Notes under the pieces: model-generated
The model's input: the letters and a program-made list of their open reading frames with translations, nothing else
Told to the model about the DNA's origin: nothing
Databases searched by the model: none
Source: a virus
DNA length: 64,000 nucleotides
IMG/VR virus record: IMGVR_UViG_3300048762_000248
Coordinates: 54,568-118,567 of that record
Reading direction: 5' to 3' (one strand)
In this document: positions 10,603 to 10,807 of the stretch, one piece after another
Numbering within the stretch: position 1 is the first letter of the stretch
Layout: each line of letters starts with the position of its first letter
Position numbers and translations under genes: made by a program

Positions 10603-10807
10603 CAGCGGGTAGCTCAGTTGGTAGAGCGCCAACGATGATGAAAGTTGAATTAATAGTACTAATTGGTTCAATTAAAATTGTCAAATTGAGAATAAAGCGA
10701 GAAATACGGGCAAAATGGGATTTGCAAGTTCCATAGCGCAAAAGAGTTCTTAGCGGTTCTTGAATACATGTTGGAGGTCGGATGTTCGAATCGTTCCCCG
10801 CTGACCA
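10603..10807 (+). tRNA. tRNA gene interrupted in the anticodon loop by an insertion of about 130 nt (intron-like); isotype undetermined
   Basis: 5' half: CAGCGGG-TA-GCTC-AGTTGGTA-GAGC-G-CCAAC. 3' half: GTTGG-AGGTC-GGATG-TTCGAAT-CGTTC-CCCGCTG-A-CCA. The acceptor halves are perfectly complementary, separated by an AT-rich insert. Confidence 0.5.

Follow-up and report, generated by a model that had tools for sequence, protein, structure and literature searches.

The window, i.e., the whole 64,000-nt stretch of DNA analysed here, derives from an uncultured T4-like myovirus and contains a tRNA gene that is complete in all its parts and carries a conserved, structured insert in the anticodon loop. 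Two readings remain for this insert: it would be a tRNA intron of a new kind, or else a natural non-coding RNA framed by a tRNA. We slightly favour the latter reading over that of a new type of intron, and tentatively, with a little less than even confidence, regard the locus as a functional, separately transcribed tRNA-derived gene, the product of which would be an RNA of ~205 nt, chimeric and stable, that never undergoes splicing. From the features described below, we infer that the gene is expressed and processed, and that the insert is not removed from the transcript.

Direct reading of the plus strand at 10603–10807 identifies a complete tRNA body with a 7-bp acceptor stem, a D arm, a 5-bp anticodon stem, a T arm and A73-CCA (Table 1). 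The nucleotides responsible for conserved tertiary interactions in elongator tRNAs (U8, A14, G18 G19, T54 T55 C56, and A58) are present, and the locus possesses the cloverleaf features of a canonical elongator tRNA. Every tRNA element listed in a preliminary description of this DNA was found at the position given there, and the separation of about 136 nt that it reported between the anticodon-stem halves is 136 nt (10634–10769). The locus is missed by ARAGORN with default settings and by the Rfam tRNA model, both at the gathering score and at E ≤ 10. When ARAGORN is run in intron mode, exactly 10603–10807 is called as an intron-containing tRNA, which is the sole call of this kind in the window. 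In a BLAST comparison of the joined exons with 50,697 phage records, tRNAs for Phe, Ile, Val, and Gly were resembled about equally, and the isotype can therefore not be assigned. A scan of IMG/VR for uninterrupted tRNAs with the same stem context returned Gly, Val, Asp, Thr, and Ile tRNAs, which leaves the anticodon unsettled.

Table 1. Positions in the window of the interrupted tRNA gene, its parts, and other features discussed in the text.
Feature	Position	Strand	Details
Sigma-70-like promoter, predicted	10561–10589	+	TTGACA, 17-nt spacer, TGa-TATTCT (extended −10); 10/12 matches, TG present
5′ tRNA half	10603–10633	+	Acceptor 5′ strand, U8 A9, D arm with G18 G19, G26, CCAAC
Acceptor stem	10603–10609 / 10797–10803	+	CAGCGGG / CCCGCTG; direct reading
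D arm	10612–10627	+	GCTC-AGTTGGTA-GAGC; direct reading
Anticodon-stem strands	10629–10633 and 10770–10774	+	CCAAC and GTTGG; direct reading
Insert arm 1	10634–10682	+	MFE and centroid folds of both copies
Helix H1	10634–10639 / 10677–10682	+	GAUGAU / AUUGUC; 1 double compensatory change, U-A to A-U
Junction strand	10683–10685	+	AAA between arms; UG in L004
Insert arm 2, conserved core	10686–10763	+	84.6% identity to L004
Helix H2	10686–10693 / 10756–10763	+	8 bp; 1 double compensatory change
Helix H3	10697–10703 / 10747–10754	+	7 bp, bulged A10752
Helix H4	10715–10722 / 10727–10734	+	8 bp, loop UGCA
Six-nt single strand	10764–10769	+	AUACAU, leads into anticodon-stem 3′ strand; GAACAU in L004
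3′ tRNA half	10770–10807	+	GTTGG, variable loop AGGTC, T arm, acceptor 3′ strand, A73, CCA
T arm	10780–10796	+	GGATG-TTCGAAT-CGTTC; direct reading
A73; encoded CCA	10804; 10805–10807	+	
Endonuclease VII/HNH-type homing-endonuclease-like ORF	10856–11548	+	Pfam PF02945 9.9e-20; PHROG endonuclease VII
Further homing-endonuclease-like ORFs	16668–17417 (−), 19283–19900, 26841–27560, 35271–36143, 39865–40587, 41945–42496, 45369–45956, 48139–48744 (−)		
T4 Rnl1/gp63-type RNA ligase	4958–7336	−	3.3 kb from interrupted tRNA
C33 tRNA Glu-UUC	26710–26786		
C33 tRNA Glu-CUC	28563–28634		
C33 tRNA Met-CAU	29750–29829		
C33 tRNA Val-UAC	30347–30424		
C33 tRNA Pro-UGG	34331–34404		
C33 tRNA Ser-UGA	35228–35315		

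The same interrupted tRNA is present in a second genome fragment, JGI contig Ga0643848_0014838 (JGI 3300081534; hereafter L004), where it occupies positions 3169–3377 directly after a homologue (P0005) of the upstream gene. Since two independent assemblies carry the locus, an assembly artefact is ruled out. According to the preliminary description, the idea of an interrupted gene would fall if related genomes carried the two halves as unrelated fragments; L004 instead has the same arrangement and the same insert. The comparison made here is limited to these two DNA copies, which are 70% identical in the flanking ORF, 82–84% in the tRNA halves, 84.6% in insert arm 2 and 65% in insert arm 1. In the anticodon stem, CCACT/AGTGG in L004 replaces CCAAC/GTTGG, corresponding to two double compensatory changes, and the T stem shows one more. 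Across the stems of the tRNA body in both copies, 97.6% of the cells pair, the sole mismatch being G7·A66 in L004.

The upstream ORF (10066–10593) has 72 homologues, and among the contigs of close relatives for which DNA was available, L004 alone carried the interrupted gene. The whole gene is absent in the close relatives L003, L005–L008, and L017, and no insert-free allele was seen among the close relatives examined, where tRNA and insert are present or absent as one unit. Three ENA contigs with a homologue show, as judged from annotation only, either a gap that would suit the gene, as on contigs of ERZ1426824 and ERZ1426849, or an unannotated 221-nt tail. No interrupted tRNA was found in a further 44 IMG/VR loci with distant homologues of the upstream ORF. 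The insert occurs once in the window and has no relative by BLAST in the 50,697 phage records; searches with patterns for the insert and the split gene (five on IMG/VR, one on JGI metagenomes, and one on GTDB) gave only chance matches inside coding DNA. The protein family encoded by the upstream ORF is widespread in phages and has the invariant motifs GHCGCPPPE and YHID. It has no Pfam match, and a profile search against PDB sequences returned nothing significant; in some distant phages (L055, L057–L059) members of the family are likewise located beside tRNA genes.

When folded separately, the two inserts adopt the same three-way junction in both the MFE and centroid structures, with two long arms opening from the anticodon stem. 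Arm 1 is separated from the anticodon stem by 0 nt in the window and 1 nt in L004. Beyond H1, it continues through an A-rich internal loop into a 12-bp hairpin (10643–54/10662–73) capped by the loop AGUACUA, which includes the palindrome AGUACU. The sequence of this stem has changed in L004, but the stem as such and the AGUACU loop are kept. Past H3, arm 2 features a large, invariant internal loop (AUACGG...GCAAAAGAG) that is clamped by a 2-bp GC/GC element. All 25 base pairs of arm 2 form in both copies; eight of them vary (one double change and seven single-sided) and none is lost, whereas only 37–50% stay paired in a control where the partners were slid by 1–3 columns. With two sequences, shuffle statistics lack power, and the argument is therefore that not a single change is disruptive and that conservation exceeds that of neighbouring coding DNA. 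Because several of the helices need G·U pairs, the structure belongs to the plus-strand RNA. The occurrence in two assemblies, the identities above that of the flanking ORF, the shared arm 1 fold, and the compensatory changes indicate that the gene is under selection as an RNA, and that selection acts both on the intact tRNA body and on the structured graft on its anticodon stem. The two hairpin loops are self-complementary (AGUACU, 10655–10661; UGCA, 10723–10726) and conserved in L004, a property that would allow formation of dimers or oligomers through loop–loop contacts.

The promoter predicted ahead of the gene (Table 1) has a counterpart with the same layout in L004 (3124–3152; TTGACA, 17 nt, TGg-TATCTT), and transcription is predicted to start a few to ~10 nt ahead of the mature tRNA 5′ end (~6–7 nt in the window). 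We infer promoter function from the consensus match and its conservation, and the locus is probably expressed. A coding reading of the 45-codon ORF at 10599–10736 was rejected, as the frame is closed after four codons in L004.

U33 is near-universal in tRNAs. For the anticodon loop that would remain after removal of the insert, all joins of k nucleotides from the 5′ side with m nucleotides from the 3′ side were enumerated for both copies. In L004, not one of these placements gives a 7-nt loop with U33. In the window, the sole canonical loop is AUGAUGA (U33, GAU, G37; Ile-GAU), which requires the stem to be shifted by one pair to include a G·U and is identical to the ARAGORN call; this placement is not reproducible in L004. 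Hence, the statement in the preliminary description that no splice site yields a canonical loop with U33 and a purine at 37 holds for L004 but not for the window, and no such 7-nt loop is common to both copies. The sole reading that the copies share is N-N-N-A-C-A-U, which makes the anticodon a Val one in each case, UAC for the window and AAC for L004. The loop then becomes G/A-A/G-U/A-A-C-A-U, in which position 33 is a purine and the wobble base differs per phage, a variation at 33 and 34 that stems from one comparison (n = 2 sequences). If the insert were spliced out, the six-nt strand, of which ACAU is invariant, would provide positions 33/34–38 (N-A-C-A-U). For the placement at 31/32, the nucleotide that would assume position 32 is part of a covarying base pair in H2. 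A purine at 33 combined with a changed wobble base, in a gene that is otherwise well conserved, argues against a decoding product. The phage is itself lax about U33, since six of the 22 ordinary tRNAs in the window have C33 (Table 1).

No intron or ribozyme family was matched when Rfam was searched with the whole window at the gathering score, and with 10500–10900 and L004 3100–3450 at E ≤ 10. What remains at E ≤ 10 is lncRNA noise and a sub-threshold C/D-box snoRNA match on GAUGAUGA (14.6 bits compared with a gathering score of 45), a segment that lies in H1. Matches to the group I and group II models, for which the preliminary description had proposed an Infernal scan, are thus missing in both copies. 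Group II introns were discarded based on the lack of an RF00029 match, a size (~130 nt) that is far too small, and boundaries that do not fit 5′ GUGYG and 3′ AY. The self-cleaving ribozymes (hammerhead, twister, twister-sister, pistol, hatchet, HDV-like, and hairpin) have no Rfam match, and the order of junction-strand lengths (0–1, 2–3, and 6 nt) is the reverse of that in the hammerhead core. The junction sequences were also read as hammerhead, HDV-like, hairpin-ribozyme, K-turn or box C/D, group III, and Ire1-type elements, and none of these fits both copies. A tmRNA was rejected as well: ARAGORN -m finds none, pair 3–70 is G-C rather than G3·U70, and the locus has both a full D arm and an anticodon stem. 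A search for pseudoknots and tertiary contacts gave only a 3–4-bp GAA/UUC(G) match to the T loop, which is probably due to chance. Judged by these comparisons, the locus belongs to no described RNA family, and an intron of the group I, group II, or bulge-helix-bulge type is very unlikely.

Group I introns are the only self-splicing elements known from the anticodon loops of tRNAs in bacteria and phages. A miniature or divergent member that self-splices with guanosine would have U/C31 as the −1 nucleotide (U in L004, C in the window) and the G of the conserved UUCUUG as omega-G. H1 contains a U·G pair, and by our own count a core devoid of peripheral elements could fit into ~120 nt. Against this, neither copy has a match to RF00028 (Intron_gpI) at E ≤ 10; because the model misses some divergent tRNA group I introns (PMC13011429), we retain a very small probability for this reading. 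At 129–133 nt, the insert is well below the range of 184–894 nt covered by 333 bacterial tRNA group I introns (PMC13011429), which bears out the preliminary description in considering it too short, and as also remarked there, no clear P/Q/R/S elements are visible. The supported helices are all nested, H2 around H3 around H4, which means that there is no P3/P7 pseudoknot, and neither a conserved crossing pairing of ≥4 bp nor a partner for a P3 strand was found among the unpaired segments. An attempt to map the insert by hand onto group I, equating H3 with P7 and H4 with P8 and including the bulged A, was abandoned since the covariation-supported H2 encloses H3 and leaves no place for P3. The 5′ exon end has no P1-like pairing that is conserved across the two copies. 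Applying the rule of −1 U and omega-G produces the loops AAUACAU and CGAACAU, which are without U33, and splicing at the U·G pair in H1 produces loops of 9–10 nt. Still less probable, with next to no chance of being correct, is an intron of the archaeal or eukaryal type, in which a splicing endonuclease cuts at a bulge-helix-bulge motif. The position in the anticodon loop would fit, and archaeal tRNA introns can themselves carry functional RNAs, but the required 3-nt bulge, 4-bp helix, and 3-nt bulge cannot be drawn at the boundaries, where the GAUGAU... and ...AUACAU strands are unable to form the central 4-bp helix in either stem register. Moreover, the nearest cultured relatives of this T4-like phage infect bacteria, and no splicing-endonuclease domain was detected among 40 ORFs scanned. 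Highly improbable, yet marginally less so than a group I intron, is a tRNA gene that is dead and without RNA function, having been disrupted by a small mobile DNA element rich in palindromes (MITE-like) or left behind as a remnant of homing-endonuclease activity. In favour of this, each of the two hairpins reads in the DNA as a palindrome with no spacer, the ends of the insert can be fitted with direct repeats of two nucleotides (AU for the window, GA for L004), and endonuclease genes are located nearby. These repeats, however, are in different registers relative to the conserved GAUGA, and no second copy of the element was found in the window or in any of the collections searched. Conservation of the insert core equals that of the exons and exceeds that of the neighbouring protein-coding DNA, the helix changes are compensatory or wobble-preserving, the necessary G·U pairs exist only in plus-strand RNA, and the promoter is conserved. 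The option of a disrupted gene raised in the preliminary description is for these reasons not upheld.

The alternative that we take most seriously is an intron of a new type, which is possible, though less probable than the unspliced RNA. The two arms (~10634–10763) would be cut out at the three-way junction and the halves sealed to give a tRNA reading GUN (Val) with a purine-33 loop. Cutting could be due to the conserved core, acting as an unrecognised ribozyme, or to endonucleases of the host or the phage. Held together by the tRNA body, the halves would then be joined, for instance, by phage Rnl1; the natural substrate of T4 Rnl1 is a nick 5′ of the wobble base, and a ligase of this type is encoded nearby (Table 1). 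An insert at precisely the anticodon loop of an otherwise perfect tRNA is what one classically sees with introns, and here no part of the tRNA is missing, A73-CCA and a covarying anticodon stem included. The invariant ACAU at 35–38 gives NAC (Val) in both copies, which is compatible with A73, and with the splice placed at 31/32, G is the first nucleotide of both inserts and the conserved UUCUUG their last six, the nucleotide ahead of the insert being U in L004. Both boundaries are brought together by the junction, the strongly conserved unpaired core would be compatible with catalysis, the departures from U33 noted above show that such loops already occur in this phage, and the many homing-endonuclease-like genes beside tRNA genes would favour an insert that disrupts their target. 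On the other hand, a loop with U33 is impossible in L004, the two copies disagree at positions 33 and 34, the 5′ exon lacks a conserved P1-like pairing at its end, no ribozyme family matches, and an insert-free allele was not found. A tRNA-Val(UAC) is already present in the window. The ligase is not specifically linked to the gene, since a relative (L002/L003) that has the same ligase lacks the gene. The minimal or novel self-splicing element, or non-canonical intron, considered in the preliminary description is a possible reading that draws no positive support from these data: the two copies share no splice-site logic, no known ribozyme matches, and L004 cannot form a canonical loop. We consider it rather unlikely that the insert adds a third kind of intron to those known from tRNAs of the bacterial world, removed at the three-way junction by a new small ribozyme or by a phage cut-and-seal reaction that ends with T4-type RNA ligase 1.

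The reading of the locus as an unspliced chimeric RNA is preferred over an intron because no usable U33 loop can be formed in both copies. It is further favoured by an insert that is as conserved as the tRNA body, by a gene that is present or absent as a unit with no insert-free allele seen, by the lack of a match of either copy to any known self-splicing or self-cleaving family, and by the precedent in T4 of tRNA-like stable RNAs in a tRNA cluster. It fits the junction data at least as well as the intron readings. In the proposed chimeric RNA, the tRNA body would ensure folding, allow RNase P to trim the 5′ end, supply a mature CCA end, and confer resistance to nucleases. Positions 32–33 of the anticodon loop would be replaced by the three-way junction with its two long, irregular helical arms, and the working part would be the conserved internal loops together with the palindromic hairpin loops (AGUACU and UGCA). 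As to its role, we can only speculate that the RNA may act as a tRNA mimic or decoy, or as a protein-binding RNA, early in infection, in a phage–host conflict over tRNAs. The guess of a decoy is prompted by the C33 tRNAs, the nearby Rnl1 ligase, and a published proposal (PMC10264068) in which variant anticodon loops let phage tRNAs evade anticodon nucleases. The C33 tRNAs in the window may likewise be an adaptation against such nucleases.

Group I introns are found in the anticodon loops of cyanobacterial tRNA-Leu(UAA), Azoarcus tRNA-Ile, and patescibacterial tRNA-Asn/Asp (PMC13011429). As for these bacterial and phage introns, the insert described here is a structured, conserved, ORF-less RNA in the anticodon loop of an intact tRNA gene that standard tRNA finders miss. 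Unlike them, it has neither a P4–P6 domain nor a conserved P1 with U·G at a usable splice site, and its removal leaves no canonical loop. An analogy to the chimeric RNA may be offered by the stable RNAs rnaC and rnaD of T4 (species 1 and 2). The former has a terminal T arm with acceptor stem and the latter an encoded CCA at its end; these too are RNAs of a T4-type phage with tRNA-like parts, and the pair is located among tRNA genes beside the homing-endonuclease gene segB. They have no sequence similarity to our locus, and rnaC is a tRNA that has degenerated and is extended at its 5′ end, whereas the locus has a complete cloverleaf with the insert in the anticodon loop. In the engineered tRNA scaffolds of Ponchon and Dardel, a structured RNA grafted on the anticodon stem reportedly undergoes RNase P processing and gains high stability. 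The design is similar in combining a full tRNA body with a structured RNA on the anticodon stem, and differs from the man-made scaffold in that a six-nt remnant of the loop is kept on the 3′ side and that the graft is a three-way junction. The intron of archaeal pre-tRNA-Trp (~100 nt) is a box C/D guide RNA that becomes functional after excision by EndA at a bulge-helix-bulge. It represents a conserved insert of comparable kind, where conservation is due to the function of the excised RNA itself, but our locus has neither the bulge-helix-bulge motif nor a D box. In collaborative homing, the ORF-less intron of cyanophage psbA, a bona fide group I intron, is paired with the free-standing endonuclease F-CphI. 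The similarity lies in a small, ORF-less insert in a conserved gene of a T4-like phage with an adjoining gene for a free-standing endonuclease; in contrast to the psbA system, L004 carries the insert without the adjoining endonuclease gene. For the same reason, the endonuclease VII/HNH-type ORF that follows the locus in the window is not tied to the insert.

To our knowledge, all tRNA introns described so far from bacteria and phages belong to group I or, rarely, to group II. If the insert is spliced, a new splicing route would be defined, which might explain the retention of RNA ligase 1 in T4-like phages; should the cut-and-seal reading be true, the tRNA-repair enzymes of phages would gain a constitutive role in splicing. 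If it is not spliced, the locus would constitute the first natural example of a tRNA-scaffold design, and a tractable relative of the tRNA-like stable RNAs of T4, which have lacked a known function since the 1970s. This small locus with its own predicted promoter is amenable to a direct test on a single transcript.

The window encodes the baseplate proteins gp5 and gp6, and its best cultured relatives, at 35–39% identity, are phages of Pelagibacter, Methylophilales, and Caulobacter. Two of its ordinary tRNA genes, Asp-GUC (21845–21919) and Glu-CUC, were found by Rfam and missed by ARAGORN; the T arm of the Asp tRNA is atypical. At least nine free-standing homing-endonuclease-like ORFs are present, of which three are of endonuclease VII, five of HNH, and one of LAGLIDADG type. 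Most of them are interleaved with tRNA genes, at a far higher density than the single segB of the T4 tRNA cluster, and such endonucleases could make an insert that disrupts their target advantageous. The Rnl1-type ligase is itself interrupted by a LAGLIDADG endonuclease domain in an intein-like manner, and the same composite protein is found in L002. Inside the tRNA region, a 175-aa ORF (23156–23683, plus strand) has a full RF-1 (GGQ) domain and only the tail of a PCRF domain, and could be described as truncated release-factor-like or ArfB-like. An 840-aa ORF (42745–45267, plus strand) contains Major Vault Protein shoulder and repeat domains (PF11978, 5e-21; PF17795), which is unusual for a phage. 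Finally, an IMPDH/GMP-reductase-like ORF and three radical-SAM ORFs, one of these with a SPASM domain, are located at 555–1589 (−), 2037–3101 (−), 3727–4764 (−), and 46575–47834 (+), and hint at a nucleotide or base-modification pathway.
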